From assembly GCA_965214835.1 (NCBI GenBank), contig CBDCCK010000002.1, positions 1,376,001-1,440,000 on the forward strand: 64,000 nt of DNA, written 5' to 3'. The translations under genes were made by a program, and so were the position numbers. Source of the DNA: Nitrosopumilaceae archaeon (GTDB lineage: Archaea > Thermoproteota > Nitrososphaeria > Nitrososphaerales > Nitrosopumilaceae). The notes beneath the pieces were generated by a model that had not been told where the DNA came from, ran no database searches, and saw only the letters and a program-made list of their open reading frames with translations. The first letter of the stretch is position 1. Each line of letters begins with the position of its first letter. Of the stretch, positions 7,707 through 63,513 are shown piece after piece.

Positions 7707-7707
7707 A

Positions 7708-22257: not shown

Positions 22258-24207
22258 TTATGGTCCCCTATAGTATTGAATGAGTGGAGGATATTTTGGA
22301 TCATCAGGAGTCATGTGACGCTTGACAATAGGTAATGCCATCTTTCCTTCATAGTATTCTTTGTCAATGATTATGATTTGTCTTCCTTTGAGTTCATCTT
22401 CAGCTAACTCGAAGACAAAGTTGTAAAATCCTTTGAATATGTCCACATTCTCTCGTTCGCTGATGTTTTTCATTGGCGTGTCTATGATCAGAAATGTAGG
22501 AAGTAATGTTCCCTTCTTGGCTGCCAGCCTGTGTATTGCCAACGCATAGCACGATTTGAAGATGGTTTTCTTTCCTCCGCTTCCAAGGTTAGCAAAATGT
22601 GTGGTGGTAGGATCGTCAGGCTTTGTTGACGATATGATTGGAATGTAGTTTTTGGGCGAAATCTCTACTTTATGATCTTCTCGCATCCCAGGAAAGTTCA
22701 CTTGCTTGAGCGTGTCCATGAAAATCTTTTCAAGATCTTTTAGAAGCGATTGTTTTTCTAAGGCCTTTTTCTTTTCGTTGTCCAATTCATCTTTCTGTCT
22801 TTCAATTTTTACGGTTAACTTGCCAGCTTCTTTCTGAAATTCATCCACTTTTTGCGGCAATGGAAGAAGTTGTTTTAGATATTGCAATTTTCCTTCAAGC
22901 ATACTTTTGTTTTTCATCAACTCTTTGGTTTGACTAAGATATTTTGAATCATAATCGTGTTGCAGAGATTCTAATCTATCATCCAACAAAGATTTTTCTT
23001 TTCGCTTGTCTGCTAACTTATTTTCAAGAGTTCTTTTTTCTTGTGTCAGTTGCGCAATTGATGAGTCAATTTCTTTGACTCTTTCAACCAAGTCTGAACC
23101 CATTGTCTTGAGATTTTCTACAGGTTCGCTATTGGGTGGTCTGTGACATAACGAACATATGTCAACTTCTTTGTCGTTGCCTAGATGCTGTCCGCACTGT
23201 GGACAAGTATCAAAGTGCAAGTTTCTGAAAACGCCGCGAGCAGCATTTGTCCTATCAATCTTCATGCTAGCTGTGATGTATTCAGATTTCAGTCTATTTT
23301 GATTTGTGATTTGGAAAGAGAGATCCTCGATCTTTTCCTTTATGCTGTCTGCCAAATTACTTACTTGTCTTGATTGTTCTTTCAATTCATCAATGGGGTG
23401 GCTTTTAACAAAGGTTTTCTTGTGTACGGCAGCAAGTTCCATGTTGATTTTTTTCAAGTCTTTTTCGACGGTTTGAATGTTTGCCTGAAGATCTTTGGTC
23501 AACTCAATTCCCGTTTCTTGCAATATGTCACGTAGTTGATTCATTGTGGAAGTTACCGCAGTTTTTTCACTTCGTAAAGCAGCTATGTCAGTCTCAAGTT
23601 TTGTAACTTTTTCAAAATGAAAACCAAAGATAAATCGAACGGCATCTTGGCTCTTATTGCGTTTGAATTGGTCATCCCCATTGTAAAGATAAAAAAATGA
23701 GCTGTCAATTCGATCTTGATCAAGATAGCAGTACCACATAAGGTCACGGAAACTAAGCCGTACCATCTCGCTCTCTATGTTGTGTTTGCTTTTACGAACA
23801 AATGGAGGCTCAAGGCCTGCTAGATAGAAAAGAAGGTCCGACATTGATTCCACCTTTGTGTCAGGTATGAGGAATTTTTCTTTCTGTCCTCTGATTGGGA
23901 TCTGCATAGCCATAGGTTCTCCTTGTGGAGGTTCTCTCCATGCGGAAATAACGGAGTTTTCTCCTTTCGTTCTGTCTAACCTCACTGAATACTTTCCTAT
24001 ATCAAGTTCGAGACTTACGCTAACAAACTCCTGTTGCATTGCGGGTGTTTCTTTAAGATCTCCGCCAAGACAAAAATTAATCAGTCTTGGCATAGTTGAC
24101 TTTCCTGCTCCAATTTTTCCATAAAAATAAGATATTGAATCAGAGAATGGTATTTCGTAATCTGCTCGTTTGGTTCTAAGAATTAACTTGCGGAATTTTA
24201 TTTTCAT
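22258..24207 (-). CDS. lmuB: Lamassu/ABC-three-component SMC-like ATPase (LmuB)
   Basis: GKIGAGKS, LSFRDL..Y.YLDQ, CPQC/CSLC, LGSGG, LIIDTP. Confidence 0.85.
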   Translation of the reverse strand: MKIKFRKLILRTKRADYEIPFSDSISYFYGKIGAGKSTMPRLINFCLGGDLKETPAMQQEFVSVSLELDIGKYSVRLDRTKGENSVISAWREPPQGEPMAMQIPIRGQKEKFLIPDTKVESMSDLLFYLAGLEPPFVRKSKHNIESEMVRLSFRDLMWYCYLDQDRIDSSFFYLYNGDDQFKRNKSQDAVRFIFGFHFEKVTKLETDIAALRSEKTAVTSTMNQLRDILQETGIELTKDLQANIQTVEKDLKKINMELAAVHKKTFVKSHPIDELKEQSRQVSNLADSIKEKIEDLSFQITNQNRLKSEYITASMKIDRTNAARGVFRNLHFDTCPQCGQHLGNDKEVDICSLCHRPPNSEPVENLKTMGSDLVERVKEIDSSIAQLTQEKRTLENKLADKRKEKSLLDDRLESLQHDYDSKYLSQTKELMKNKSMLEGKLQYLKQLLPLPQKVDEFQKEAGKLTVKIERQKDELDNEKKKALEKQSLLKDLEKIFMDTLKQVNFPGMREDHKVEISPKNYIPIISSTKPDDPTTTHFANLGSGGKKTIFKSCYALAIHRLAAKKGTLLPTFLIIDTPMKNISERENVDIFKGFYNFVFELAEDELKGRQIIIIDKEYYEGKMALPIVKRHMTPDDPKYPPLIQYYRGP

Positions 24208-24755
24208 AGGTCTATCTTCTCCCCAAATTTCATGTCATGAAGTTCTGGTACTAATTCATACATTAAGTCTTTTAGTCTAGTTGCGCTTAGTCTTCCAAAA
24301 TTTGAGTAGATTATATCAGAACGGTTAACAAAGTCGTCCATTCCTTCATATTCGCCAAGTTTCTCGGCGGTTTCTTTGCCCTTTTGAGTAATTTGTATTT
24401 CGACTGCTTTATTGTTGGTTGCTACTTGTATCAGTCCTTTTGATTCCAGTATTGCAAGATATTGATAGTAACGATGATCCCATGGGCCGTATCGGAATCT
24501 AACCATTTTAGATTCCACACTTGTTTTTTCGTGTGGTCGGATATTTGGATTGTCAGTAGAATTGAATTTACTTAGAGCACACTCCAAAACCGTAGGATAT
24601 CTTAGCAAAAAGTCTAGTTTTACCAATTTTGTTATTCCTTTGACCTGTTTCATGTTACGTCCTCCTAGTTTTGATAGCAGTATCAAGATACGAGATGTAT
24701 GCAGTTCAAAGTTGCTATCCAAGTCAAGAATCTGTTTGATTATCTGAAAGCTCAA
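24204..24755 (-). CDS. lmuC: ABC-3C middle component (LmuC-like, wHTH)
   Basis: KLVKLDFLLRYP...RYGPWD.RYY; overlaps both neighbours. Confidence 0.8.
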   Translation of the reverse strand: MSFQIIKQILDLDSNFELHTSRILILLSKLGGRNMKQVKGITKLVKLDFLLRYPTVLECALSKFNSTDNPNIRPHEKTSVESKMVRFRYGPWDHRYYQYLAILESKGLIQVATNNKAVEIQITQKGKETAEKLGEYEGMDDFVNRSDIIYSNFGRLSATRLKDLMYELVPELHDMKFGEKIDL

Positions 24756-25972
24756 TTTGCATCCTCCATTTTTTGATTGTTGAACCAGATCTTACAATCT
24801 CCAGTCAAAATGCCGATTATGCCCTTCAATACCTCGTATTTTATTCCAAAAACATCGCGTGCTCTAGTTCTGGCTATGCCTCTGAGCCGGCCCTCTAATG
24901 ATTTTAGCATGTCGGTACCGTATAATGCATCGTCATTTTTTGAATCAGTTTCAGATTCTGCCGCTTCGTTTTCTAATAGGGTTTGCAAATGATCAATTTC
25001 TTGTTTGATTGCTTCTGGTTCACCATTTCTTTTGTTGTATTCCTCAAAGAAGTGATTCTGTGCAGAGTAAGCCAAGTTTTTCATACTGTTGATTTCCATT
25101 ATGCCTATTCCTCCTGCTGCCATTTTTTGTTCCATTAATTCCACGGTTCCAGTCTTTAACTGAAACTCTGTAGGGTTGTTTGACACCAAGTAGACAATCC
25201 GTTCATTCTCTACAATTTCTCCGATTGTTTCAGGGAGGATTTGTTTTGATTTGACTTCCCGCCGTAATTGTTTTCCTTCGCCATCTTCAACAAATGTAAT
25301 ATAGTCTTTGATAGAATTCTCTGTTACCTTGGATGATTTCTTCGAAATAGCTAGGACCAGCATGTTAAGTAAAGAAGATAATTTAGGAACAGAAAGATTA
25401 GAACACTTTTCAATTTTAGACAAATAATCAGTTGTTATTTTACTTTCTATGTCATCAAGTGACGGTCCTTTCAAAATTTCTGTTTTTGACAAAACCGAAA
25501 CTACATCCGTTTTATTTATCGAATTGCTATCAGAGAGTTTTTCAACATACTCCTTGACATCAGAATTCAAATCGTTTGGATTTTCTTGTAATGATTTTAT
25601 TATTCTCTCCAGGTTTTTGGTTTTTTTAAAACCAATATTTGAAACAAAAATAAACTTTTCAAAAGTGTCAGGAAAACCCTGATTTAGGTTAATGAATCTG
25701 TTAAGACTTTTAATTACATCGGGATCATTATAGCTAAATTCTGGTTTTGATTCAGAAGTTTTGATTTGAATTGAAACAAGTTTATCGTTGCATAAAACAC
25801 CTAGAACGTCATCTGCAAGTTCACAAAATAATTGTTTATACGTAATTTCTTTTCTATACATTTGGATAGCAAGTAATATCGTATACAAATGCTGGTATCT
25901 ATATCGTCTTAGAACATCATCGCCGGTTGCAGGAACTTTAGCAATTTCTTCTATTTTGTCCACATCTATCAC
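24752..25972 (-). CDS. lmuA: Lamassu effector: Cap4/DUF4297-like endonuclease plus ABC-3C CTD (LmuA)
   Basis: GDD....Y.YQ, E..DD, QIKT nuclease motif; C-terminal G....LT.DC.IW. Confidence 0.8.
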   Translation of the reverse strand: MIDVDKIEEIAKVPATGDDVLRRYRYQHLYTILLAIQMYRKEITYKQLFCELADDVLGVLCNDKLVSIQIKTSESKPEFSYNDPDVIKSLNRFINLNQGFPDTFEKFIFVSNIGFKKTKNLERIIKSLQENPNDLNSDVKEYVEKLSDSNSINKTDVVSVLSKTEILKGPSLDDIESKITTDYLSKIEKCSNLSVPKLSSLLNMLVLAISKKSSKVTENSIKDYITFVEDGEGKQLRREVKSKQILPETIGEIVENERIVYLVSNNPTEFQLKTGTVELMEQKMAAGGIGIMEINSMKNLAYSAQNHFFEEYNKRNGEPEAIKQEIDHLQTLLENEAAESETDSKNDDALYGTDMLKSLEGRLRGIARTRARDVFGIKYEVLKGIIGILTGDCKIWFNNQKMEDAN

Positions 25973-26067: not shown

Positions 26068-26351
26068 GGCTACTCAGTAATCTGGGCGTGAAAATTCCAC
26101 TCAAATTTACTACTCGTACCTAATTCTATGGGCGACCTAAACACATGCTGGAGTACATTTGACAAGGTTATTAAAAAATGGGCGATACTGTACTGTAAAT
26201 GACCCTGGAGACGAGCAAGGCACTGTTTCACGATCAGCTGGAGCAGATACGCAACCAGACCGGGCCCTCGCTACGATCAGTGATTTACATGGGGCCATGA
26301 CAGAGAAGCCTGATTCACGCCTAAGACTTGGACTGCAGATGCTGCAACATT

Positions 26352-27665
26352 TTATGACGTTTTTGTTTTTCTGGCCCACTCATTCAACTCTGTTATTACT
26401 GTGTTACGGTAGTTTGTTGCAGGGTTTTCGTGGGATGTTAGCATGTACTCCCCCCACAGGTTGCCGCTGCCTTTTAACACATCGCGTATTGATGAGCTGC
26501 CTCTTTTGTTTTCTGTGTCATATACATATCCCGCATAGGTTGAGTCAGGCTCCAGCCAAGTTATCTGCATATCCGGAATGAACTGTGGCAGGTTTTTGAC
26601 AATGTTCATGCTTGCATCATGGGCTATGCGTCCCAGCATAGAATCGATCACGATAAAATGATTTTTTTCCGCAATGTCACGCATGGCTACAATGCATGAC
26701 ACGGCAAGGCAGTATGTGAGCCCTGCACCGAGCACCGATGGCGGCCTTCCGGGATCCGAGGGACTCTCTGGATCGCATACTGTCACGGTACAGTCTGATC
26801 CGATCTCTACCTTGGAAAAGGGATTATGTGGTGTCAGTCGCAGAAAATACTCGGTGGTTTTGTCAGCAACTGTATTCCTGAACCTCTCTAGCAGGGCATC
26901 CCTGTGCTGACCGAGTATTTTTTCGATGGTTCTTGCCAACGCACTTATGTTGTGACGTGATTGCGACTCTGTTTTTAGATCCATGTCTTTGAGTAGTTCG
27001 TCACGTGTTTCTCTGATGTGTCTTATGGCATCTCCAACAACTGAAAGGCCGGATATCTTTTCCATTCCGACTCTTATCTTGTTTTTGCCATCTGAATCAA
27101 AGAAGGAGCCCAGCAACTCATCGTCAACGAGAAAATACCATGACATGTACTCTGGGAGCACGTCCAGTATGGCATCACAGGCACAAGGCAATTCTGTGCA
27201 CACATCCCATTTGGCAGATTGTTTTGTCCTACGGACAAACTCCAGAGCAGGTGTAATTTCAATGCCTGCAGGCAGGATGCCTCCCACATCGTCCCGGCGA
27301 ACAAGCCGTGAAGATTCCTGCCTCTTGATAAAATGCACCCTGCGTTTTATTGCATATAGCGGCTCGTCCCCCTCGTAAAGATGGACCTCTACAGACGTCT
27401 CGTCCTCATCGCCAGGATTCAGTGACTGCAGCACGTCGCGGTTGATGATGCACATGTCACGAGGGTTTTTCTCAGATCTGAACTTCCCATAAAGGCACCA
27501 GTAAACGGCATCCAATATTGTGGTCTTGCCCCTTCCGTGGGCGCCCGTGATTACCGTAATCGTTTTTTGCGAATCCACGGATAATTCAACTGCAGCAGTG
27601 TCCTTGTATATTCCATAGTTTTTCAGCATGATTTTTCCTAGGCGCACGCCTGTGTTAGGAACCAT
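26352..27665 (-). CDS. Short PbeC/DndD-like ATPase lacking most of the coiled coil, copy 1
   Basis: Walker A GAHGRGKT, YWCLYG; degenerate signature (LGAG) and Walker B/D-loop (IDSMLGRI); start probably ATG 27665. Confidence 0.75.
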   Translation of the reverse strand: MVPNTGVRLGKIMLKNYGIYKDTAAVELSVDSQKTITVITGAHGRGKTTILDAVYWCLYGKFRSEKNPRDMCIINRDVLQSLNPGDEDETSVEVHLYEGDEPLYAIKRRVHFIKRQESSRLVRRDDVGGILPAGIEITPALEFVRRTKQSAKWDVCTELPCACDAILDVLPEYMSWYFLVDDELLGSFFDSDGKNKIRVGMEKISGLSVVGDAIRHIRETRDELLKDMDLKTESQSRHNISALARTIEKILGQHRDALLERFRNTVADKTTEYFLRLTPHNPFSKVEIGSDCTVTVCDPESPSDPGRPPSVLGAGLTYCLAVSCIVAMRDIAEKNHFIVIDSMLGRIAHDASMNIVKNLPQFIPDMQITWLEPDSTYAGYVYDTENKRGSSSIRDVLKGSGNLWGEYMLTSHENPATNYRNTVITELNEWARKTKTS

Positions 27666-27861
27666 GTTTGTTGCAGAACTCCTGTATGTCTTCATTACCG
27701 GCATGTCTTGTGAGAATTTTGCCCAGATTGGTTTTGTAGTTTTTGCCGTCTGCCAGATCCATCTGTTCCTCTGCCTTGAGAACCTCCTTTAGTATGTCCT
27801 TTATCCTGTCTGGGGCATCGTAGGCATCTATCTCTTTCAGAATGAGATCATTAACGGGCAC
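27655..27861 (-). CDS. PbeB-like small protein, copy 1
   Basis: Similar to 16955-17185 (N..IL...P..I..L...L..E...N.D....C); same overlap with the downstream ATPase. Confidence 0.65.
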   Translation of the reverse strand: MPVNDLILKEIDAYDAPDRIKDILKEVLKAEEQMDLADGKNYKTNLGKILTRHAGNEDIQEFCNKHGS

Positions 27862-28635
27862 AGCATGACTATGCAAGCATGTCTTAAAAACTATAGTCGG
27901 CGCTTGCATAGCCTCCTCCTTGTACCAGATCCGGATTCGGCTCACCCCGGTTTTTAACTACCTGTACCTGAATTCTTCCTGATCCGTCTTACGGTTATAT
28001 CCATGGACTCTGCCATCCTAGCGTTGGTGAGGGTGCCCTTTCTCTTTTACCGTACAATCCATCGTACCTAGCTTTCCTTTAGTTTCATGCTGTTTGGGCG
28101 CCCAAGGCCCACGTATTTGCGCGGCCTCTGCCGCTAGACCCACACACCCATGCCTCCGCTGCGGGCAGGCTTGCTCATCTTCTCCTGGCCGACCTTGTAT
28201 ACTCGGAAAAGGGATGAACAACTTTTCGGACGAGATAGATTATAATCATGATCTCACTAAATTGAGAAGCAATCATGAAATCTTTTGATGCCAAAAGCAA
28301 GCTTGGAGCGGGAATCCTTTACATCATAAATTCAGGTATTGTATTTGAGACAAAAATCAAGGCTTGATTTTGCAGATTCCATTGACAATTCTTAGAACGC
28401 ACTAGGCTGGGCTCAAGCATGGGGTGATGGCAGAACAGGTAGGGAGAGTAGCCTAATGCTGTGGAAGGCGCTGAAACTCTTGAAATTGCCAGGGAGCTGA
28501 TTCGAAATTAGCAAATTCTGATTATTTGTGAACGGATTTGCATAATGATGGTGCACGAGTACCTTCTGGGATGCCCCTAATTGATCTGTTTCGGTCAAAA
28601 TTGGCTATCCTGGGTTACTTCTGGGAAGACTGCAT

Positions 28636-28725
28636 GTAAGAGTTTACCCCTCAGGCTGTACTGCTGGCCGGAGCCTTCATGGTCACGCCTGCCACGTTGT
28701 ATCTTGGGGGGGGGTAAACTCTTAC
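28636..28725. mobile_element. ~90-bp MITE, GTAAGAG family, copy 1
   Basis: Perfect 15-bp IR GTAAGAGTTTACCCC; homologous copies at 29180-29270 and 63514-63604. Confidence 0.85.
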
Positions 28726-28747: not shown

Positions 28748-28864
28748 CAGTCTTCCCAGAAGTACGTGATTCATGACTGTGCAGATGGCAGTGGGCGAAT
28801 CTGCAGGCATCACAATTTGATTTGTTTCAAATCCGGGGCCGTTTTTGGGCTACTGGGAAGACTG
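28748..28864. mobile_element. 117-bp ISH3-type MITE
   Basis: Ends CAGTCTTCCCAG.../...CTGGGAAGACTG; 4-bp TSD GGGA; same IR as 32683-33236. Confidence 0.75.
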
Positions 28865-29082
28865 GGGACGGTCATGCCGGCACACATCCTGAATGCGCGG
28901 GGACTGACAATCTAGCAAGTAATTTCATGGATTACGTACGCCTTGCCTGCATTTGGATCGGGTTGGCGTACATTATGTGCCCATTTGATCAAAATTTGCT
29001 AATTTCGAATCAACTCTCAGGGATCGTCGCGTGTCGGTTAGGTGTTGAGAAACCTCAGACAGAGTCGCCGGAGCCCCAGGGA

Positions 29083-29179
29083 AACATGGACAGGGATCGT
29101 CGCGTGTTGGCTAGACTGAGGCGCAAGGGCTGGTCCGTGCTGCGCTTTTGGGAGCATGACATCATGGGCAATCCTGACA
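29083..29179 (+). pseudogene. Vsr/DUF559-like endonuclease C-terminal remnant
   Basis: NMDRDRRVLARLRRKGWSVLRFWEHDI. Confidence 0.7.
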
Positions 29180-29270
29180 GTAAGAGCTCACCCCCTCCAG
29201 AAAATACGACGTGGTAGGCACGGTGATCAAGGCTCCGACCAGCAGAGTCGCCTGAGGGGTAAACTCTTAC
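29180..29270. mobile_element. ~90-bp MITE, GTAAGAG family, copy 2 (inverted relative to copy 1)
   Basis: gtaagagctcacccc...ggggtaaactcttac; interior resembles the reverse complement of copy 1. Confidence 0.85.
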
Positions 29271-29320
29271 GACTGCATAGGGTCTATAATTTATATGACA
29301 GCGCAAGAGTTCTGGTTACG

Positions 29321-29584
29321 TTGTATGATAAATCAGATTTTGCAATTACGTTTGTAATACAAGGTAAAGAGTTTGCGATTATAGTCATGCCGGATGAAAT
29401 TATAAAAAATGCTGTAAAAAAAGCACAGGAAAAATCTGGCAATAAAGACAAGCCGGACGATTTGAAGGTTAGAACGGAAGAAGGCAAAATACTCGATCAG
29501 AACAAGAGTTTTAGCGATCAAGGAATCACAAACCCAACAAAACTATTTCTTGATAAAGGTCCGGGCCGCGGTGGAAGAAGATAG
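29321..29584 (+). CDS. Ubiquitin-like protein (DUF2604-like, BilA position)
   Basis: Beta-grasp pattern AVKKAQEKSGN...EGKILD..KSF...GI....LFL ending GRGG-RR; TTG start about 26 nt after TTTATA. Confidence 0.8.
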   Translation: MYDKSDFAITFVIQGKEFAIIVMPDEIIKNAVKKAQEKSGNKDKPDDLKVRTEEGKILDQNKSFSDQGITNPTKLFLDKGPGRGGRR

Positions 29585-30012
29585 CGATTTTAGAACCAAA
29601 GGTATCCAGAATAAAATTCACCAAGGCCGTCCAAGAGCTAGAATCTGTACAAAAGACCTATGAGGAAATTTGGAGAGTGCGATATGCGCAATACCCAACA
29701 ATACTGTTAGATGTTCTTTTTGCACGAGGAATCACGCTTTTACTGAATCTGGAAAATTGGGATTTCCTTCCTCCACAAGCTACCTTGATCAGTACGGATC
29801 TGCAAAGTAAGACAACACGGTCGCCCGGACACCACATCGTCCTCAATAAAAACACAGGCCGATTGTGGTTTTGCAGTCCGGGATTCTCTGAGTATCATAC
29901 GCATTACCCGGAAGACAGGTGGGATCTCATAAGGGGGACTTATCTAGGAAGCATAACGGGCATAGTAAAACAGGCATGCAATATGATTGGCAGGACAAAT
30001 CGTAATGAATGA
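29581..30012 (+). CDS. CEHH-family E2-like protein (BilB-like); start codon unclear
   Basis: NWDFLPP...FCSPGFSEYHTH...W; frame open from 29557 and encodes EPKVSRIKF. Confidence 0.75.
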   Translation: MAILEPKVSRIKFTKAVQELESVQKTYEEIWRVRYAQYPTILLDVLFARGITLLLNLENWDFLPPQATLISTDLQSKTTRSPGHHIVLNKNTGRLWFCSPGFSEYHTHYPEDRWDLIRGTYLGSITGIVKQACNMIGRTNRNE

Positions 30013-30484
30013 TGCGAGCCTTGCTAAAGTTTCACGGATAAAAATTCCAAGACAGGTCATAAACGAAACCTTTGATTTTTTGCAAAAACACGGTGACAAA
30101 CATGTGGAATCTCACGCGCTGTTGGTTGGAAAAGAAGCGGCGAGGGTGTTCAGCGTGTCTGCCGTATGGTTTCCAAAACAACGCGGGACATCTTGCTCCT
30201 ATGAAGTGCCGGAGGAGGAAGTGTTTCAAATTAACAAACGGCTAAACCTAGAGAGAAAAACGGCAATCTGTCAGGTACACACACATCCCTGCGGTGCGTT
30301 CCACAGCGGCATAGATGATGATGGATCGGCATTAATGTTGCCGGGATCTGTCAGCATCGTGATACCGAATTTCGGGTTTGTTCCACGCGAAGAACTAAAT
30401 CGGTGGGAGGTGTACAGGCTTGAGGACGGCATATGGCAGCACGTATCAGAGCGGGAGGTGAAACGCTTATTTCGCGTCACGTGA
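30005..30484 (+). CDS. JAB/MPN metalloprotease (deubiquitinase, BilC-like)
   Basis: E...QVHTHP...FHS..DD JAMM motif. Confidence 0.9.
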   Translation: MNDASLAKVSRIKIPRQVINETFDFLQKHGDKHVESHALLVGKEAARVFSVSAVWFPKQRGTSCSYEVPEEEVFQINKRLNLERKTAICQVHTHPCGAFHSGIDDDGSALMLPGSVSIVIPNFGFVPREELNRWEVYRLEDGIWQHVSEREVKRLFRVT

Positions 30485-31986
30485 CACCCAATGAAGAAGG
30501 CATAGTTCAAAAGAACATTACGGCAATGTCGATGATATCCAAATATGAGTCTGCCAGCATTAGATCGCTGCTAGACTCGTTTAAAGTCAGGGTGGTACTC
30601 TCAGAAAACGACACGAATGAGAATTATGAATGTGCGTGCAATGTCACATTAAACCTCCTTACAAGGTTTTTAAATTCGGTACATTATGCAGGTCCGAAAA
30701 GCATTCTAAGAATGCCGCCGTCTTGCAGGTCAAAGATTCGCTGTGACGACGCGAATGGTGACGACGCGTCCATGCACCTGATATTTGGAAATCACAAACC
30801 AATGCCTAATTCGTTGTATGTTTCGTCCTCTGGCTGGAGCGTTTACCTGTCTCAGGACAGTCCGTGCGGTTGGAAGCCCTTGGTCATAAACCGCCTGGCA
30901 GCAGCGTATGCTGGAGGACTGGCGGTGGGGGAGGTTTTAAAGAATGTCTTGGATGATGCCCCATCTGAAAAAATAGATCGGTTCGAATATGACTTGGTTA
31001 CACACGGCAGGTCGGTGCAGCCCGTTACGAAACCTCCGGTTCCAAAAATCCTGGATCTTGGTGATTTGACGATTGTGGGTTGTGGGGCAATAGGACAGGC
31101 ACTGTGTTTTGGTTTGGAATCCATTACGTCTCTTGCAGGAAGGATGACCCTGATCGATCATGATATGTTGGAGACCTCAAATGAGCAGAGATACGTCCTG
31201 GCGTTCCCAGAGAACCGGAGGGAAAACAAGGCATTGCATATGTGCAAATTCTTGGCCCGCAACAACCCCCTCCTGAACTTGGTTGGGGTTCCAATGAGCT
31301 ATGAGGATCACGCAAATGCCGTCAATATGCCCGTAGGAAGCAGAGCCACGGTGGCTGTGGACAACATTCTTACCAGATTGAACGTGCAGGCGGGATTGCC
31401 AAGAGTACTCTGGAACGCATGGACAGACGTGTCTGACGCAGGGTTGAGATACGGGATTGGCAGGCATGCTCTAGATGACAGGTACGAATGCATCTGGTGT
31501 GCCTATTTTCCCACAGGTAAGCAACCTACGGAAATGGAAATGAATTCAATGCTGACGGGGTTTTCACATAAGGAGATACAACGGAAGCTTGATCAGGGTG
31601 AAAAGTGCACTAGCAAGGATTTGAAACGAATTCACAAACATACTAGCATCCCAATGAACATATTGATCAAAAACAAGAACCGCCCGTTTGCGGACGTGCT
31701 ACACGGGGAGTGCGGCGTATATGCGCTAGGGAATCGAGGAAATGACGCCACAGCCCCTGTGCCACATGTGCCGTTTCTTGCTGGGGTGTTCCTCGCATCC
31801 CAAATCGTACTGGAATCACTACAGCCGTCACCGTCGCAGGCAAGTCCCACCCATCATTATTCCAGCGTGGATTTCGACGGCATGGGGTTTCCAAGACCCG
31901 ATTGCGCGGTAAAAAAACTGAGAAATCCAAAATGCCTATGCAATGATCAAGACTACAAAGACGCCTATGCCGAAAGATGGAACTGA
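30481..31986 (+). CDS. E1/ThiF-family activating enzyme with inactive N-terminal adenylation-like domain (BilD-like)
   Basis: VGCGAIG, IDHD...SNEQRY, AVDN...R, CIWC...C...CLC; GTGA overlap with JAB. Confidence 0.85.
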   Translation: MTPNEEGIVQKNITAMSMISKYESASIRSLLDSFKVRVVLSENDTNENYECACNVTLNLLTRFLNSVHYAGPKSILRMPPSCRSKIRCDDANGDDASMHLIFGNHKPMPNSLYVSSSGWSVYLSQDSPCGWKPLVINRLAAAYAGGLAVGEVLKNVLDDAPSEKIDRFEYDLVTHGRSVQPVTKPPVPKILDLGDLTIVGCGAIGQALCFGLESITSLAGRMTLIDHDMLETSNEQRYVLAFPENRRENKALHMCKFLARNNPLLNLVGVPMSYEDHANAVNMPVGSRATVAVDNILTRLNVQAGLPRVLWNAWTDVSDAGLRYGIGRHALDDRYECIWCAYFPTGKQPTEMEMNSMLTGFSHKEIQRKLDQGEKCTSKDLKRIHKHTSIPMNILIKNKNRPFADVLHGECGVYALGNRGNDATAPVPHVPFLAGVFLASQIVLESLQPSPSQASPTHHYSSVDFDGMGFPRPDCAVKKLRNPKCLCNDQDYKDAYAERWN

Positions 31987-32062
31987 TATGTTCTTGTACC
32001 TGTGCCTGTCCATGGGTGCATTGCCGTGGAATCTGACTGCCGTCAAAACTAAACAGTGGTGT

Positions 32063-32425
32063 TTAGCCGTGTGGAGGTTCGATTATGTCATCCATGATTT
32101 TTTTGCACACCGTGTTGTAAAATTCTGATGTCACAAAACATACACTTCGCCGAACCATACTGCTTTTTATCAAGCCGATCCGGTGACACATGACTTGACT
32201 TTCTTCTCGCAGTTCAATACTTTCAAGATGACTTGGCAAAATTCTGATCAGATACTTGTCAGGGCTCATGTTGCTAGTAATTCCCGCACACAAGACAAAA
32301 CCACTGCTGTCGTTAAAATCCTGCCGAGATATTACCAGTAAGGGACGGGTTTTTCTTTCCCTCTGGTCTGCATACCCCGGATCCGCTAAAATGATTTCCC
32401 TTGGAGCAAGTTCATGATAAGCCAT
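32063..32425 (-). CDS. PemK/MazF family toxin
   Basis: RKTRPLLVIS..DFN......AGITS motif. Confidence 0.85.
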   Translation of the reverse strand: MAYHELAPREIILADPGYADQRERKTRPLLVISRQDFNDSSGFVLCAGITSNMSPDKYLIRILPSHLESIELREESQVMCHRIGLIKSSMVRRSVCFVTSEFYNTVCKKIMDDIIEPPHG

Positions 32426-32456
32426 TTGCAAACAACGTGGTTATTAGCTATTATTC

Positions 32457-32639
32457 TCAGTCGTCCCACATTACCCTGGTAAACTGTTCCATGTCATCTT
32501 CAGCATCCTTTATCGGTTCATTCTCCCTTATACCCAATGAGACCAAGGGTTTGTCCTTGGATATGTTGCTTGATTGAATAAACCTTTTCGGAATGGTTTT
32601 CACCTCGTACGTCTTGTCTGCATCATACGCATTCTCCAT
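32457..32639 (-). CDS. Small protein, candidate antitoxin
   Basis: 60 aa with acidic C-terminus, directly upstream of the toxin. Confidence 0.45.
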   Translation of the reverse strand: MENAYDADKTYEVKTIPKRFIQSSNISKDKPLVSLGIRENEPIKDAEDDMEQFTRVMWDD

Positions 32640-33284: not shown

Positions 33285-33335
33285 AAAGGTTTCATGGCTT
33301 GCAAATGCCGGTTTCGTGATGATATCAGCTGGCAA
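33285..33335 (-). pseudogene. Possible 5' stub of an SspB/DUF4007-like gene
   Basis: TTG-PADIITKPAFASHETF with GAGGAGG upstream, overlapping the desulfurase 3' end. Confidence 0.45.
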
Positions 33336-34521
33336 CGTTGCTTGCCTCCTCGACGGGTGGTTTGGAACCGGCCGATCTGGCAAGTTCGGCGGCTTTTGCA
33401 ATCTCCTCTACGGCCTTTTGGATGTCCCTCATTGTGTTTTGCTTTCCGATGGATACCCGAATACACTCGTCTGCAGCCGTCTCGTCCAGACCCATTGCCA
33501 GGAGCACGTGCGAGGGCCCCATGGCAGATGACGAGCATGCGCTTCCGGAGGATATCGCGATGTTCTTTGCGTTTGTGATCACGGCATCGGCCAGCACTCC
33601 CCTGATTCTGATATTGGACGTGTTTGGAAGGCGCTCTGCAGTCTCGCCGTTTATCGTAATATCTGGAACGGCCTTTTTTATCCTGCTTTCAAAGTTGTCG
33701 CGCAGCATCATGATCTTTTCAGATATCCTGCTGTCCTCAAGGCGTATCAGCTCGCACGCCTTGCCAAACCCGACAATTGCAGGGGTGTTTTCCGTCCCGC
33801 TGCGCACGTTTGCCTCTTGGCCTCCCCCCAGAATTGAGGCATGCAGGGTCTTGCGTATGGGGCGCGTTGCAATCAGGGCCCCGCATCCCTTGGGACCGTA
33901 CATCTTGTGGCTGCTGCAGGTGGCGGCGTCTATTCCCAGATCCATTATGCTTACCGGGATCTTTCCCACCGCCTGCGTTATGTCGCTGTGCAGGTATGCC
34001 CCTGCGTCATGTGCGACCTGGGCCAGCTCCCTTATCGGGTTTATCACCCCGGTCTCGCTGTTTGCCATCATTATGGACACCAGGTCTGCGGGATAGTCCC
34101 TGAGGAATGCCTTGAGGGCCTTTGGGCTGATCGTGCCGTCCAACCCTACTGGAATGGGCATTATGGAGATCATGTCCCGCCTGAACATGTCCAGGCAGGG
34201 CTCTATTACGGACCTGTGCTCTGTTGCCCCGTACAATATCCTGCAGTCATGGAGCATGTACTTTCCAAAGCTGCAGAGTATCAGGTTGTTTGCCTCAGTC
34301 GCACCCGAGGTAAAAAACACGTCCATGGCGCTGCATCCGACGGTAAGGGCCAGATCCTCGCGTGCCTGGTCCAGCATGTCTGCCACATCCGCGCCCTCAT
34401 CGTGCGCGCTGGACGGGTTTGCAAAGTGCTCTGTGTGCATTTTGTTCATGGCATCAACTACGCGCTGGTCTACCGGCGTGGCAGCGTTGTAATCAAGATA
34501 CACCAATGAGAAGACATGCAA
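33325..34521 (-). CDS. Second cysteine desulfurase (IscS/DndA/SspA-like)
   Basis: YLDYNAATP, SGATEAN, HSDITQ, SSHKMYGPKG, SSGSAC. Confidence 0.92.
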   Translation of the reverse strand: MHVFSLVYLDYNAATPVDQRVVDAMNKMHTEHFANPSSAHDEGADVADMLDQAREDLALTVGCSAMDVFFTSGATEANNLILCSFGKYMLHDCRILYGATEHRSVIEPCLDMFRRDMISIMPIPVGLDGTISPKALKAFLRDYPADLVSIMMANSETGVINPIRELAQVAHDAGAYLHSDITQAVGKIPVSIMDLGIDAATCSSHKMYGPKGCGALIATRPIRKTLHASILGGGQEANVRSGTENTPAIVGFGKACELIRLEDSRISEKIMMLRDNFESRIKKAVPDITINGETAERLPNTSNIRIRGVLADAVITNAKNIAISSGSACSSSAMGPSHVLLAMGLDETAADECIRVSIGKQNTMRDIQKAVEEIAKAAELARSAGSKPPVEEASNVAS

Positions 34522-35437: not shown

Positions 35438-35517
35438 AGACTTTATGCGTAATCGGTTCAGATCTAGGATTATCACGAACAAATTCGCCTCATTCAGGTC
35501 GATTACGCATAAAGTCT
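35438..35517. mobile_element. 80-bp MITE with the IRs of the IS5-family element at 9665
   Basis: AGACTTTATGCGTAATCG...CGATTACGCATAAAGTCT. Confidence 0.9.
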
Positions 35518-38500
35518 ACAGTTTGTAATGATGAGGCAAACGTGCTTCGGCAGCGTCCTTCAGGGTACCGCTTTTGATGTCATGTATCATCGCTTTGAGA
35601 TTTTTCTCAAAGTGTGGTGAATCCCCCTCGCTTGTGGTTATCAATCTGTCTACAAGGCCTAGGTTTTTGTATTCTGTCAGTTTTTGATCCCATCTTTTTG
35701 AATATTTTTTATCACGTAGAAGACCAAGGTGTTCGACGTAGAACTTGCCATTAATCTTAAAGTCTGGCTTTATTTTGGATTGCTCGTACAGATCCATGGG
35801 TTCATATTCAAAGTCTATGTTGGATTCATCAAGCATCTTTGCAATCATCCATTCGATCTTGGAGCGCACCTCTAACACTCTGCCGTCTTTTGTACGGAGG
35901 TGATACGACCTGAATGGAGAATTTTTAAACCCGAACATCAGGGTTTTTTTGTCCGTAATCGAGGAATTTCCAAACACACGATTCAGCATATCTGGGAGGC
36001 CACCTGATAGATCACTTTTGATCAGCAAGTGCAGTTTTGTCTTGGTTCGTGTCAGTCCCGTATACAGCAGCTCACGGGACACGAACTGCTTGATATCAGA
36101 TATGATGAACAGAACGTGGTCGAACCCGCTCCCCTGAGACTTGTGAACAGTTATGGCGTATCCAAGATCAAACTTCAAGTCGCCGCTGTCGCCTTGTTTG
36201 CTGTTAATCTCGTCACGAATCCTGCCGTCGTTCACATAATCGTATTTTTGTCGAAGATCCTCGAGCTCTTCAAAGTAGGGTGAACCGTCATGCCTTATGT
36301 ATCCAAGCGATCCGTTGGCCAGTCCAAGATTCCAAAACTCCTTTCCGTTTTGGGTTACTTTAAGATAGATGTTTTTCTCGCATATCACTTTGTCACCGGG
36401 AACAAAAGGATCCTTGTAAGCATTGCTTATTGGCGTTGTAGATGAGCTGTTCTGATCGGTACCCGTGGCGGCAAGCCGATTTAGTATTACGGTTCCAAAG
36501 TCACGCACCCTTCTTGGTGCCAGCATCTGAATTCTGTCTAGTTTGATCTCCTTTTTGTTGTCATTGCAGACGATATTGCTAATAGCATCTCGAATCGATG
36601 TATTATCTGCGCATGCTGCTATTTCGGAGAGTATTTTAGTTATGTTCTGTTCAAGTTCGTACATATCCTCAAAATAGCAGATCTCAAGTGTTTTGTCAGT
36701 ATGGGTAAGTGCCTGCTTTATCTCGCACAAGGAGGGTTCCTTGTCGTGTTCAAACAACCCAGCCAGAGATCCCAATGCGGTGTTAGAATCAAACCTAAGG
36801 TTGTCCTCTAGCCGGATGTGGTTGTTATCGCGATGTTTGTTTTTCAGGTAGTGTATGGTGTCTACAAACGGGATCCCGTATCCTATCGGAGGTAACTGCT
36901 TTTCATCACCTGTGATTATCAGGTGTTTTAGGCTGGCACGATCTATGGTTAGTAGCAGGACGGCCATCTGAGCCTGGTCTACCATCGAGGCCTCATCGAT
37001 TATCAGGACGCGTGGTTTTAGCTTTACCTGTTTAACAGAATCTTCAAGATCAGCCAGACACTCAAGTCTATGATCTAATACCTTCTTTAGATTGTATTTG
37101 TATTTATCACGTACTCCTTTTTCAGAAGTACTGTTCGCAGAATACAGTAGTTTGTGGATTGTGGATATGGAGATAGAGTTTTTTGTTGCTGCCTCCATAT
37201 CTGGACAATGATCCTTTATCCGTTTCTGGATGACTAGGGATGCCTTTCCTGTGGGTGTGACAACATAAACCGGCTTGACGTTGTTTTTGGCAAAATGGCA
37301 GATCAGCTGGACTATTGTGTCTGTCTTACCGCTACCTGCTCTCCCAGACAATACAAATAATCCGTGGGCAAAGATATTGCGGTACATATCTTGCCGCCTC
37401 TGGATAGACATGTCTGATAATTTTTCACTCAGATGCGGTGTAAATTTTTTGGATGGTGTGTCAAGTTCATAGCATTTGTCTAACTGTTTTTTTACAAAAT
37501 ATTCTGTGATTGATTCCAACTTTCGAATGCTTTTCAGCTGGTAGGTTACATCACCATCCGTACTAGGATGCGGACATATATCGAATCTGTCTGCAAATGT
37601 AGGCATGCCTTCAAGTGATCGAAGCTTGTTCCGGCCGATGCTGAGTTTCTTGTGTATGTAATACAGTGGATAATTCTCTAGCTGCTCTACTACGCTGTCT
37701 CTTGAAAGATACGTAGAGCCAGATTTGTCTGCATGATCCTTTAGAATCTTCGTTACTGCAGCTCTCAACCGTTCTGGAGAATCCGAGTTAAACCCGTAAT
37801 ACCAGTCGGCATAACTAGGATCTGGAATCATGGCTATATCGATTTGGTATAGTGACGGTTCGTCTTCCGGCTCGATCTTTGAGTTTTCTAGGATCATATA
37901 CGGGTCATGTTCCATATCCTCTACAGTATGTATGTCCAACAATCCTATGACATGGTTAAGCTGGACATCAGAAAAGTCAAACCTTGAGAGAAACTCCAAT
38001 TCTTTTTTCTGGTTTTTTATGATCCTACACACCCTGACCATCCTTCCATTCGATTCCTGCATGTCGGGTGGAAGCCTGTCCAGATTTTCAAAGTCATCTT
38101 TTATGATGTTTCGCATCTCCGATGCAAGATCTGGCACAAGCTGTTCGTCAAAATCTTTTTCCAAGATCAAGCGCAACGCGGTGTCAAGACTAGGATACCT
38201 TCCACGCTCTTTCCATGCAATCTCAAGCATACGATCAAGCTGCATGTCAATTCGGTCTAGCCGTCCGGAATCTATCAATCCGTCCTTTTTCATGGATCTT
38301 AGCGATCTTCTCAGGAGGTACAGGAGGTATATTGCCTTGTCATGCGAGATGTGTTTTGAGACATATTTGAAATCAGGGATCATGTTAGACTCCTCTATGG
38401 GGATCATCATGTCTTCCACAGCAGTCCCTCGAACATCCTGTGCAGGTACCGGCACCGCGCCATCATCATGAATGTCACTGTTGTGACTGTCGTACCACTG

Positions 38501-38802
38501 TAGGTATTCTTGGTATGGTAGTACAAAACTGCATTCCGGATCTAATCGGATCTTGAACTGCCACGCCGACTTGGGAAAGTTTTTCATGTTGGGACTGCTA
38601 CGCATACTCCGTAAGAACTCATCACTCATGTCATAATCCTGTGGTTTTGTGACATCGGATATCAGCCCCGCACCCACTAGAAGATACTTATGATCATCTC
38701 CAGTTAGGGGGTTGCTGTAGTTGCAGTAAGTAAACACTAGTGATTTTTTGTGTTTTAGCTCGCCAAGAAACAAGTCCGTTTTGCTGGCCAACTCCTTCAA
38801 AT

Positions 38803-40218
38803 CAGTAGTTCCTCGATGTACTTTTGCAGGCACGATAATTACGCAATTTGCCGAGATTTTTTGACCATCATACTATAGATCAGGCGGTGTGCCAACCATC
38901 ATCATGATACCAACACAAAACGACGTGTTTGCACACCAGTTTGACATAACATCGAGACAGTTTAAAACATTGCGACGGCGGTTTTCCAAGCTCGGGCTGG
39001 CCGTCTCAAAGAGTCGCAACGCAGTGTATGGCCACATCGACGCACTGCGCGTTCTATATTTCATGTCTGAGAGGAAGATGTTTGCAGAATCTGCCGTGAC
39101 GCACCTTCGCAGGCGGGCCTCAAAATGCAGCAGGCAGCAGCATGACGACGGGGCTGCCTCCAAGGGCGGCGCGTATAGTTGCCGTACGCCTAGTCCGGAC
39201 TGGATCCTAAAGGCGATCCGGGGCGTCAGCCTGGATGATGCGCAAAAGTGGTGCAGCTCCATGCTGCAGCATACGGTAAGGTGCGCCCGCAGGTCAGGCA
39301 TGCTGCACAACACGGACGTCGTGGCAGTGGACGTTACCGACGTGGAATACTATGGCAAGGGCCTGGAGGATATCGCCAGAAAGTCAAAGCCCAAGAACGG
39401 CACGTCGACGTTTCTCTCGCACATTACCATGCACGGAATAGGATCAGATGACGGGTCTGACCTCGTGCTTTCCTCGCTGCAGCTTCCAAAAGAGGCAAAA
39501 CTGGCCGATTTCGTGCCTAAAATGATCCGCAAGGCGTCCAGATCAGGGATGAGGATCAAGACGTTCCTGTATGACCGCGGGTTCTTTAACGTGGACTGCA
39601 TGAGGGCTGCAGAAACAAGCACGGGCAGCTACATCATGCCTGCCGTCAAGAACAGGAGGATAGTGGCGGCAATAGAGGAGCATGACCGCGGAGAACGCGG
39701 TGCGGTATCAAAATATACAATGACCAACAAGGACGGCAAGAGCGCCACATTCAGGCTAGTCATTGTGGAAAAGGACGAGGTAGAAAAGGACGGCACGGCA
39801 GCAGCAAAGAAGGACAAGGCAGAAGAGACCATAGCCGACAGGTATCTGGTCTTTGCCACCAACATGTCTGCTAAAAGTGCAGAGGCAGTCATTGAGCAGA
39901 TACCGGAGGAGTACCGCAGTCGGTGGGGAATCGAGACCGGGTTCAGGGTGATCAAGGGGATAATGGGCAAGACGTGCAGCAATTCCCCGGTCGTCAGGCT
40001 GCTGCTGTTCTATATGTCTGTCATACTGTACAACCTGTGGAGGACTGCCGTGTTCATAGACGTGGAATCCAAGTGGGACGGATTTGCAGGAGGGAAGGGG
40101 TTTACCATGATGCTGTTTGTCGCGTGCATTGTCGATGCGGCCGACTCGTTTGTAAACGATCGCGGAAAGTAGCGGAGGTGCCGTGTCGGGTCTGCAAAAG
40201 TACATCTAGGAAGTACTG
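38803..40218 (+). mobile_element. ISH3-family insertion sequence
   Basis: 27-bp IR cagtaSttcctMgatgtacttttgcag (2 mismatches); 4-bp TSD AAAT. Confidence 0.92.
38889..40172 (+). CDS. ISH3/IS4-like DDE transposase
   Basis: AVDVTD..YYG, YDRGF, FATN, YRSRWGIETGFR. Confidence 0.92.
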   Translation: MPTIIMIPTQNDVFAHQFDITSRQFKTLRRRFSKLGLAVSKSRNAVYGHIDALRVLYFMSERKMFAESAVTHLRRRASKCSRQQHDDGAASKGGAYSCRTPSPDWILKAIRGVSLDDAQKWCSSMLQHTVRCARRSGMLHNTDVVAVDVTDVEYYGKGLEDIARKSKPKNGTSTFLSHITMHGIGSDDGSDLVLSSLQLPKEAKLADFVPKMIRKASRSGMRIKTFLYDRGFFNVDCMRAAETSTGSYIMPAVKNRRIVAAIEEHDRGERGAVSKYTMTNKDGKSATFRLVIVEKDEVEKDGTAAAKKDKAEETIADRYLVFATNMSAKSAEAVIEQIPEEYRSRWGIETGFRVIKGIMGKTCSNSPVVRLLLFYMSVILYNLWRTAVFIDVESKWDGFAGGKGFTMMLFVACIVDAADSFVNDRGK

Positions 40219-40776
40219 AAATCTACATATCTAGATATTTCTGGTTTTTTTCCATATCCTATTGAAAACGGCCAGGAAAATATCGTGAATGGATCTATTT
40301 TATGTTCGAGTGGAGGTATGTCTGCAAAATTTGGATCTAGATCTGCAAACGGGTGTTTGTCTTGAATGGTACAGTTTGCATCACCCTGTAGGTTTATGGA
40401 CCAGTAGCATGGAGGCACGTATCCTGTCTTGCTTATCTCCTTGATGGACATGCCTTTGAATTTCTCCTCCTGATCCAAGTCTATCCTTCGTTGGAGTCTT
40501 GTTGAAAGAAGGGAATAGTTTCCGGTGCAATAGATGTTGCTTCTCGGATCCTTGCAGACGTGGCCATTCCATCCAGAATCATGCCACGCTAGTCTGATGG
40601 ACAGATGCTTCGTCAATGTTTGTAGAATATATCTAGATGTAATTAAGGTAACTATACTTGTAATCATAAATTCTTGAAGGCCAATTACTGCCGGTAAGAG
40701 TATCTGATCGTGAAGTACTTCAGGAGCTTTTGCCCGTCAGCATACCAAGATTATAAGCAGACGGCATGATGATCAA

Positions 40777-42624: not shown

Positions 42625-43063
42625 CTGCCATACAAAGCCATGCTGCGCAATTGGAAGGATTTCCGGCGATGCTTCTAAGCTCTAACAGCTTCGTGCCTAA
42701 AAACCCAACACTGAAATTTTAATCGGCTAGGCGGCCTTGGGCTTTGGTTATGTCCAAACCCCCCCTTGCAGCAAAATTCGCGCCTGTATGCTGTAGTAAC
42801 CTAGTCTATTACCAGTATCTCCTCTCAATATATGCCGGTTCAGAAAAGCGGTAACTCGTATGAAGTTCGGCCTGTATGATGCCATTGGATGGAACCTTGG
42901 GGTGCAAAACAACACGAGTGCACCACAAGGCTTGGCATGCAGATGGAGGTGGCCTGAGGTGAGCTGTGCGGCGACCCCCTCGCTACGATCAGTGATTTAC
43001 ATGGGGCCATGACAGAGAAGCCTGATTCACGCCTAAGACTTGGACTGCAGATGCTGCAGCATT

Positions 43064-44377: not shown

Positions 44378-44573
44378 GTTTGTTGCAGAACTCCTGTATG
44401 TCTTCATTACCGGCATGTCTTGTGAGAATTTTGCCCAGATTGGTTTTGTAGTTTTTGCCGTCTGCCAGATCCATCTGTTCTTCTGCCTTGAGAACCTCCT
44501 TTAGTATGTCCTTTATCCTGTCTGGGGCATCGTAGGCATCTATCTCTTTCAGAATGAGATCATTAACGGGCAC
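44367..44573 (-). CDS. PbeB-like small protein, copy 2
   Basis: Same protein sequence as copy 1. Confidence 0.65.
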   Translation of the reverse strand: MPVNDLILKEIDAYDAPDRIKDILKEVLKAEEQMDLADGKNYKTNLGKILTRHAGNEDIQEFCNKHGS

Positions 44574-44673
44574 AGCATGACTATGCAAGCATGTCTTAAA
44601 AAACTATAGTCGGCGCTTGCATAGTCTCCTCCTTGTACCAGATCAGGATTCGGCCCACCCCGGTTTTTAACTA

Positions 44674-44752
44674 TAGCAACGGGCATAAGTCTTTGAGTCA
44701 AAGTAGGTCATAACTACACGTAAAAAACCTCAATTATTTCTGCTCGTTGCTA
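44674..44752. mobile_element. 79-bp MITE with TA duplication (IS630/Tc1-like)
   Basis: IR tagcaacgRgca; absent from copy 1, whose empty site reads aacTAcctg. Confidence 0.88.
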
Positions 44753-63509: not shown

Positions 63510-63513
63510 GATC

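Follow-up and report, generated by a model that had tools for sequence, protein, structure and literature searches.

Operons of the CEHH/6C kind have been described as Type II BilABCD systems, with the gene order Ubl-CEHH/E2-DUB-E1 (ubiquitin-like protein, E2, deubiquitinase and E1), in which the CEHH protein is a diverged E2 (10.1101/2023.09.26.559546). In the Type II system of Ensifer aridi, BilC cuts the ubiquitin-like protein (Ubl) after a conserved Gly, which in this type can be followed by up to nine residues, and the E1 and E2 conjugate the Ubl to lysines; in E. coli, conjugation by E. aridi BilD and BilB is non-specific (10.1101/2023.09.26.559546). Phage interference has been reported for Type I Bil, which conjugates its Ubl to the central tail fibre (10.1101/2023.09.04.556158). 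The 162 Type II operons reported are mostly from Rhizobiaceae, and the supplementary table contains one archaeal entry, Candidatus Heimdallarchaeota archaeon LC_3; the supplementary files, as available, hold no entry with 'Nitroso', 'Thaumarch' or 'Cenarch' (10.1101/2023.09.26.559546). Here we analyze a four-gene locus within 64,000 nt of DNA (hereafter the window) from a Nitrosopumilaceae archaeon (assembly GCA_965214835.1, contig CBDCCK010000002.1, positions 1,376,001 to 1,440,000). We consider it probable that the locus is a Type II BilABCD operon, carried in a low-GC defence island on the chromosome of an ammonia-oxidising archaeon, and that its role is most likely antiviral. The first-pass annotation of this DNA knew of no characterised archaeal example. 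This has to be narrowed, as the Heimdallarchaeota operon was already listed and ISG15-like systems have been recorded in one archaeal taxon (10.1101/2024.10.26.620412).

Four tightly packed, co-directed genes lie at positions 29321-31986 of the window on the forward strand, and the map of open reading frames (ORFs) together with family matches identifies them as Ubl, CEHH/E2, JAB and E1 (Table 1). All four genes are where the first-pass annotation had placed them. Its description of the genes as overlapping is right for two of the junctions: the E2 and JAB genes share 8 nt (ATGAATGA), and the JAB and E1 genes share 4 nt (GTGA, including the JAB stop codon) if E1 begins at GTG 30481, an alternative start that yields 501 aa and fits the N-termini of relatives better. 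The Ubl and E2 genes overlap (ATAG, with the Ubl stop) only if E2 begins at the Ile codon ATA 29581, and without such a non-canonical start this part of the description fails. The GC content of the operon is 46.8%, and that of the Ubl gene 37%, compared with 52.6% for the genome. The sequence of the operon is not an assembly slip, because matching contigs were found in another sample and in another study. Over 29241-32100, a 3468-nt contig from another sample shows no differences, and a 486-nt contig, present in both runs (X5 and X6) of a different study, covers 29208-29693 with four substitutions and no indel. None of these four substitutions falls between 29557 and 29630, leaving the Ubl-E2 junction unchanged.

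The Ubl precursor ends in DKGPGRGGRR, with Gly84-Gly85 encoded at 29570-29575 and Arg-Arg at 29576-29581, followed by TAG. It matches Pfam DUF2604 (E 8.1e-12, 45.8 bits against a cut-off of 25) and the Ubl(BilA) structure 8tyx_A in the PDB (E 3.5e-4), and ubiquitin matches as well. The AlphaFold2 (AF2) model, with a mean predicted local distance difference test (pLDDT) score of 82.2, consists of a single beta-grasp domain. Its best Foldseek matches are 8tyx_A and 8tyz_B (template modelling score, TM, 0.81/0.85), followed by ubiquitin, and the Caldiarchaeum Ub:Rpn11 complex (6fno_D, TM 0.71) is also among the matches. Both sequence and model therefore agree with the earlier description of a single-domain Ubl ending in GRGG-RR. 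In the clade of close relatives described below, GRGG is invariant in all seven aligned Ubls. Four of the seven end exactly at GG and the others continue with Q, RR or ITNP; since most clade Ubls already end at GG, trimming of the RR kind is a variable feature, as it is in bacteria.

The JAB protein carries a complete catalytic signature (E35, H92-T-H94, S101 and D104, numbered from ATG 30005), as expected of the intact JAMM protease annotated at first pass. It matches Pfam Prok-JAB narrowly (25.5 bits, cut-off 25), PADLOC BilC at E 8.9e-14, and DUB(BilC) of 8tyx_B over its full length at E 4.3e-13. The 8tyx_B residues E33 and D106, which were mutated in the E. aridi study, align with E35 and D104. 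The E1 consists of an N-terminal inactive lobe and an active adenylation lobe, the latter with GCGAIG at residues 216-221 (31078-31095) and DHDMLETSNEQRY at 31156-31194; the motifs GxGxxG and D-x-D...SN-x-QRY are present. Cys427 (31711-31713) lies within an insert, and zinc-type Cys pairs are found at CIWC 353-356 (31489-31500) and CLC 501-503 (31933-31941). The protein matches Pfam ThiF (E 2.6e-9), PADLOC BilD over residues 45-276 (E 1.1e-12) and E1(BilD) of 8tyz_A at E 1.2e-34 (residues 88-516 against 80-506), while PADLOC E1-E2 models match residues ~210-295 with E down to 5.4e-9. In the alignment with 8tyz_A, Cys427 stands opposite C417, the putative catalytic Cys of BilD (10.1101/2023.09.26.559546), so the two-lobed E1 with a Cys-containing insert is also borne out.

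The E2 frame is open from 29557 to 30012, contains WFCSPGFSEYHTH, and has FCSPGFSEYHTH at 29869-29904. The codon of the catalytic Cys is at 29872-29874 (Cys98 when counted from ATA 29581, Cys106 in the open frame), HHIV is encoded at 29830-29841 and EYHTH at 29890-29904. A profile built from 51 E2 family sequences finds E2(BilB) of 8tyz_C at E 1.6e-39, and a profile limited to the clade, i.e., the ten closest E2 relatives, has this same chain as its sole PDB match (E 6.3e-4), with WFCSPG opposite FLCMAG (C138). The AF2 model (pLDDT 90.5, predicted TM-score 0.86) has the three BilB chains 8tz0_C, 8tz0_D and 8tyz_C as its top Foldseek matches (TM 0.68-0.76, probability 1.00), followed by UbcH7, UbcH5, Cdc34 and other eukaryotic E2s. 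The first-pass annotation had allowed that the CEHH protein might lack an E2 fold, and these matches show that it has one. Identity to E. aridi BilB is 17-20% over the structural alignment. Across the 51 sequences, 31 of which match the Pfam family Metal_CEHH (PF14455), the Cys, a Gly and the first His are invariant. In the window protein the C, the E and the first H of CEHH are present, and a further His lies two residues on (EYHTH), but in a column that varies within the clade. Clade E2s are two residues shorter there than the E. aridi-like members, a deletion that removes the fourth CEHH position, and a His located 13 positions N-terminal to the Cys is invariant among them (HIV...WFC). NCBIfam gave no specific match.

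In the representative library, the 340-aa protein P0021 joins a BilB-type E2 naturally to a BilC-type JAB, and in P0033 (207 aa) about 45 residues ahead of the E2 part resemble the first strands of the clade Ubl (INFVVNGKEV...). A search of 168 longer candidates gave no fused E2 forms at E ≤0.001, which is weak evidence.

The operon is thus a diverged member of the known Type II Bil systems and not a new architecture, having the published Type II order and, among solved structures, the E. aridi counterpart of each protein as the best or the sole specific match. The PDB matches of the E1 and the JAB protein far exceed what chance would give. With the E. aridi TW10 system (PDB 8TYX, 8TYY, 8TYZ and 8TZ0) it shares the gene order, a single beta-grasp Ubl with a conserved Gly and a short tail, an E1 with inactive and active lobes and a Cys-bearing insert, an E2 without the C-terminal helices of eukaryotic E2s, and a match by sequence or fold for all four proteins. 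It differs in its archaeal host, in a diverged E2 that stays under the Pfam and PADLOC thresholds, in the deleted fourth CEHH position and the extra clade-invariant His, in an E2 gene that often lacks a canonical start, and in clade Ubls that mostly end at GG. The Type I BilABCD system of Collimonas sp. OK412 comprises these four functions, likewise in this order (10.1101/2023.09.04.556158), and PADLOC BilC and BilD match here. However, the Type I Ubl has two beta-grasp domains (10.1101/2023.09.26.559546) where the window Ubl has one, and PADLOC BilA and BilB do not match here.

Other ubiquitin-like systems are further removed. Type II CBASS (cyclic oligonucleotide-based anti-phage signalling system), with Cap2 (an E1-E2 fusion) and Cap3 (JAB), has in common the E1 adenylation core and the JAB partner, but the operon described here encodes E1 and E2 separately, includes a Ubl gene and has no CD-NTase or effector. 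The archaeal small archaeal modifier protein (SAMP)/UbaA systems likewise combine an archaeal host, a beta-grasp protein with GG, a ThiF-type E1 and a JAMM protease. To our knowledge, SAMP systems have no E2, and sulfur-carrier systems have neither E2 nor JAB. The window has an E2, its Ubl is closest to BilA and ubiquitin, and its E1 scores far under the cut-off of the SAMP-activating E1 family NF047750 (16.5 bits against 450). The Caldiarchaeum subterraneum/Asgard E1-E2-RING operons are also archaeal and encode a Ub-like protein, E1, E2 and an Rpn11-like JAMM protease, but the E2 here is of the CEHH/BilB type and not of the canonical UBC type. No RING or zinc-finger E3 was found among the Pfam matches of the four genes and 31 neighboring ORFs, a scan that did not take in all short ORFs. 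The distinction from both archaeal systems made at first pass is therefore kept, and with E2 and JAB present the locus is unlike a sulfur-carrier system.

Table 1. Positions in the window of the operon genes, the promoter-like element and neighboring features.
Feature	Position	Strand	Remarks	Basis
BilA-type Ubl precursor, 87 aa	29321..29584	+	start TTG	Pfam, PDB, AF2/Foldseek
BilB-type E2 (CEHH family)	29581..30012	+	143 aa if ATA 29581 is the start	profiles, AF2, Foldseek
BilC-type JAB/JAMM metalloprotease, 159 aa	30005..30484	+	start ATG; alternative TTG 29987	Pfam, PADLOC, PDB
BilD-type E1	30433..31986	+	517 aa from ATG 30433	Pfam, PADLOC, PDB
TATA-box-like TTTATAT	29290..29296	+	~25-31 nt 5' of Ubl start	read from sequence
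DndB-DndC-DndD-DndA cluster	2807-8886
PbeA-type helicase, two parts	13545-14585 and 15456-16928
rve-integrase gene	14643-15479	-
Lamassu-like system, three genes	22258-25972	-
Direct duplication, two copies	26265-28487 and 42977-45302		~2.2 kb
ORF with Vsr/DUF559-like remnant	28822-29217	+	remnant 29033-29217
Dispersed repeat, ~75 nt	29195-29272		also ~28636-28705 (-) and 63512-63604
MazF/PemK-like toxin gene	32063-32431	-
Small ORF upstream of toxin gene	32457-32639	-
DndA/SspA-like cysteine desulfurase gene	33325-34521	-
PDC-S68 helicase region	35516-40667		N-terminal part 40206-40667
DDE transposase gene	38889-40172

The start of the E2 is less straightforward. Between the upstream stop at 29554-29556 and GTG 29677, the E2 frame has no ATG, GTG or TTG. 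Nevertheless, relatives and E. aridi BilB have N-termini (VSRxKF) that align with the stretch from ~29587, and the upstream stretch forms helix 14-30 in the confident AF2 model. We surveyed eight distinct clade loci with a readable Ubl-E2 junction, leaving out L013 and L027 (contig ends), L020/L003 (decayed) and L021 and L022 (other lineages). Five of the eight (the window, L010, L023, which has the same sequence as L024, L025 and L026) have no canonical start before the VSRxKF helix. The other three do: L011 has GTG, L012 has ATG (ATGA overlap) and L019 has GTG (TAGTG overlap). Each of the five start-less loci has ATA or ATT in the equivalent position, 5-7 nt 3' of GGTGG within the Arg-Gly-Gly codons of the Ubl, and L019 has the corresponding ATA followed by its GTG start. 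The 16S rRNA of the host ends in ...GGAUCACCUCCU, and given this 3' end GGUGGU could pair with it, with one G-U pair. For the 32 codons before the first canonical start, Nei-Gojobori ratios of nonsynonymous to synonymous substitution rates (dN/dS) are 0.27 for L025/L026, 0.10 for L010/L023 and 0.32 for the window and L010; for two further locus pairs, saturation of the synonymous sites left no usable ratio. These upstream codons are under purifying selection, and we conclude from the sequence comparisons that the E2 N-terminus is likely to be translated.

Most economically, this N-terminus would probably arise by Ile-codon initiation that is coupled to the end of Ubl translation. For the clade as a whole we tentatively propose that the E2 has been kept start-less, and that ribosomes just finishing the Ubl might initiate at a near-cognate AUA or AUU, assisted by the Shine-Dalgarno (SD)-like GGUGG within the Ubl codons. 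If so, E2 synthesis would be tied to, and held far below, Ubl synthesis, and the clade would be an archaeal example in which the use of a near-cognate start codon is conserved, with E2 genes hidden from gene callers. Termination-reinitiation coupling has been described in archaea (PMC6728339), and near-cognate or AUU/AUA starts are not mentioned in the available part of a review on translational coupling (PMC12548453). A programmed -1 frameshift giving a Ubl-E2 fusion would agree with the E2 frame being -1 to the Ubl frame in the start-less loci, but inspection by eye revealed no slippery heptamer (X XXY YYZ) within the 22-28 nt in which the shift must happen, and such a frameshift is unlikely. 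A +1 shift from the out-of-frame GTG 29571 was also considered and set aside, as no conserved shift site was seen.

Several results weigh against reading the locus as a working, antiviral Type II system. The PADLOC BilA and BilB models have no match at E ≤1 to the Ubl or the E2, the E2 matches PF14455 (E 1.1e-4) with only 22.2 bits against a cut-off of 25, and the fourth CEHH residue is not conserved in the clade. A single-sequence search of the PDB with the E2 gave no match at E ≤1, which is why profiles and a fold search were needed for this protein. The archaeal translation review PMC7531240 names, in the part available, no start codons other than AUG, GUG and UUG, and by this measure initiation at an Ile codon would be out of the ordinary. 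As to function, the available text of the Type II preprint contains neither 'plaque' nor 'protection' (10.1101/2023.09.26.559546); the antiviral role therefore draws on Type I and on the gene neighborhood, and the first-pass statement that Bil tags phage proteins holds for Type I as reported and goes beyond the Type II text. Furthermore, several genes of the surrounding island are broken by insertion sequences (ISs), and a genome of the same genus (G003, loci L003/L020) carries a decayed operon in GC-rich DNA, with an 89-aa E2 frame, an E1 split in two and no Ubl seen upstream. Because of these broken neighbors and the decayed same-genus copy, decay of the operon is also possible.

If the operon were a decaying, non-functional remnant, the E2 would not be made, or would be made as a truncated, inactive protein from GTG 29677. 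The missing canonical start before a conserved N-terminus could be taken in this sense, as could the public gene calls of relatives' E2s, which are shortened (P0005 to 111 aa, P0013 to 97 aa), and the IS-broken neighbors and G003 point the same way. However, the start-less arrangement recurs in loci whose proteins are only ~50% identical, each of these loci keeps an open frame, with the low upstream dN/dS given above, the catalytic residues of all four proteins are intact, and the variant strain of another study keeps the junction unchanged. We therefore regard decay as unlikely and retain a working operon, with the E2 probably translated from ATA 29581, as the better reading.

The host genome is 3.22 Mb in two contigs and rated 99.95% complete, and the operon is on a contig of 3,209,351 bp. 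This contig also carries archaeal small- and large-subunit rRNA genes, which fit the archaeal models best within their clans, and an archaeal amoA (E 1.4e-115; none of 14 control genomes matched). As archaeal rRNA and amoA share the contig with the operon, the host is an ammonia-oxidising archaeon. It belongs to the same family as the genome carrying L011/L015, a Nitrosopumilus sp. The first-pass annotation had raised the possibility of a chimera with bacterial DNA. In favor of such a misassembly, Type II Bil has been described mainly from Rhizobiaceae, and the 2.7-kb contig that carries one of the relatives was binned as Alphaproteobacteria. Against it, the window lies 1.38-1.44 Mb into the 3.21-Mb contig of a nearly complete genome, a genome-wide repeat abuts the operon (41 matches are listed), and other genomes of the host class, among them a 1.87-Mb Nitrosopumilus chromosome, contain the closest relatives of its E2 and E1. 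Moreover, the broader E2 family profile matches only 2 of 401 genomes in the class of the "Alphaproteobacteria" metagenome-assembled genome (MAG), one being that MAG and the other a weak match. The contig is archaeal and not chimeric, and we assign a misassembly a practically negligible probability. The contig from that MAG (L013/L029, 2705 bp) encodes an E2 with 45-50% identity to the archaeal clade and one in-frame TAA, and may itself result from a binning error or a transfer.

Full four-gene operons were also read in L010, L011 and L012. The clade E2 profile matches 8 of 401 sampled genomes of the host class, host included; the same search corresponds to 8 of 351 genomes that are at least 90% complete, and to 6 of 81 genera. 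In a search of 1.84 billion proteins, the E2 family comprises 71 representative clusters at E ≤1e-3, 34 at ≤1e-10 and 10 at ≤1e-30. The E1 has 42 relatives at E ≤1e-10, of which the named ones are from a Nitrososphaera sp. MAG and a Cenarchaeum symbiont MAG. In the E2 tree, a clade of 15 rows (support 93) unites the E2 of the window with those from four more genomes of the class, and two further class genomes have E2s that fall in the other, E. aridi-like half. As E2s of the class occur in both halves, the class holds at least two E2 lineages. The tree is a quick IQ-TREE run with SH-aLRT (Shimodaira-Hasegawa-like approximate likelihood ratio test) support only and a midpoint root, and for this reason we claim no donor or direction of transfer. 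A scan of viral contigs with the clade E2 alignment gave 39 pattern matches, none of which was confirmed.

The neighboring genes agree with the earlier description of an archaeal defence island. They score as DndB/C/D/A, PbeA, PbeC, LmuA/C/B, two AbiU-like AIPR proteins and a PDC-S68 helicase, and a MazF-like toxin and several transposases are found as well. The GC content is 41-47% in 10-kb bins at 1.39-1.42 Mb of the contig (window ~14000-44000), which fits a horizontally acquired island. This context bears on whether a working Ubl conjugation could have a non-antiviral role, such as housekeeping modification, proteasome targeting, stress regulation as for SAMPs, or sulfur transfer. For Type II Bil the antiviral role is only predicted (10.1101/2023.09.26.559546), the E. 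aridi enzymes conjugate non-specifically in E. coli, and the opposite strand carries a cysteine desulfurase gene 1.3 kb downstream, all of which would suit such a role. On the other hand, a distribution as patchy as 8 of 401 class genomes is unlike housekeeping, the operon is surrounded by Dnd, Pbe, Lamassu, AbiU and PDC-S68 genes within an island of low GC content, and its E1 is far from the SAMP-activating family. For sulfur transfer in particular, the carrier systems we know of have no E2, and the desulfurase matches DndA/SspA with E values no higher than 1e-119. A non-antiviral role thus seems rather improbable, and an antiviral Type II Bil system remains our preferred reading.

From homology to the E. 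aridi system, we infer the following pathway. BilC would remove Arg86-Arg87 from the Ubl precursor and expose Gly85. That JAB trims the RR may fairly be inferred from E. aridi, where BilC cleaves behind the conserved Gly, and from Type II tails of up to nine residues. BilD would then adenylate Gly85 and take up the Ubl as a thioester on Cys427, from which it would pass to the E2 cysteine, and the E2 would attach it to lysines of target proteins without an E3; BilC might also remove the Ubl from targets. The likeliest role would be interference with virus assembly or replication, as in the Type I Bil of bacteria. Upstream of the operon, TTTATAT may serve as the archaeal promoter for an operon mRNA with little or no leader.

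The surroundings of the operon show a number of further features. The phosphorothioation cluster DndB-DndC-DndD-DndA is complete, and the desulfurase gene 3' of E1 is an orphan. The three-gene Lamassu-like system consists of LmuA, with a Cap4-type nuclease domain, LmuC and the SMC-like ATPase LmuB. The PbeA-type helicase is split by an rve-integrase gene, and the PDC-S68 helicase is cut from its N-terminal part by a DDE transposase gene. The MazF/PemK-like toxin gene and its small upstream ORF lie just 3' of E1. On the other side, directly 5' of the Ubl gene, lies the dispersed repeat, whose 41 listed matches across the host genome have 77-86% identity (100% to itself) and whose depth in public runs is far above that of its flanks; a 96-nt stretch containing it is not structured (fold z = 0.46), and it may be a MITE-like or REP-like element. 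Just 5' of the repeat, residues 71-120 of an ORF resemble a Vsr/DUF559-type endonuclease remnant (PF18741, E 3.2e-4, under the cut-off). A truncated PbeC/SMC-like ATPase gene and its downstream DNA are present as a direct duplication, with matched segments 93-99% identical. The two blocks bracket ~14.5 kb with the Bil operon, mazF, the desulfurase, the PDC-S68 helicase, a transposase and an AbiU-like gene, and may be a site for recombination or excision. Scans of the window for tRNAs and Rfam families found nothing.

Collectively, our results show ammonia-oxidising archaea, which are globally important and whose virus defences have barely been studied, to encode a complete E1-E2-Ubl-DUB pathway of the kind known from bacteria as Type II Bil. 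Beyond the archaeal entries already on record, the locus adds an ammonia-oxidiser clade that is partly missed by standard models, an E2 gene whose start-less form is conserved, and a Ubl suited to proteomics. As the Ubl ends in GR-GG, trypsin would leave the same Lys-GG remnant as on ubiquitin targets, and standard diGly proteomics would be applicable. The PADLOC BilA and BilB models, the Pfam CEHH family and gene callers miss members of this clade, its E2 above all, and archaeal Bil systems are consequently under-counted in surveys. This distinct clade offers a concrete system for asking whether Ubl tagging acts against archaeal viruses.

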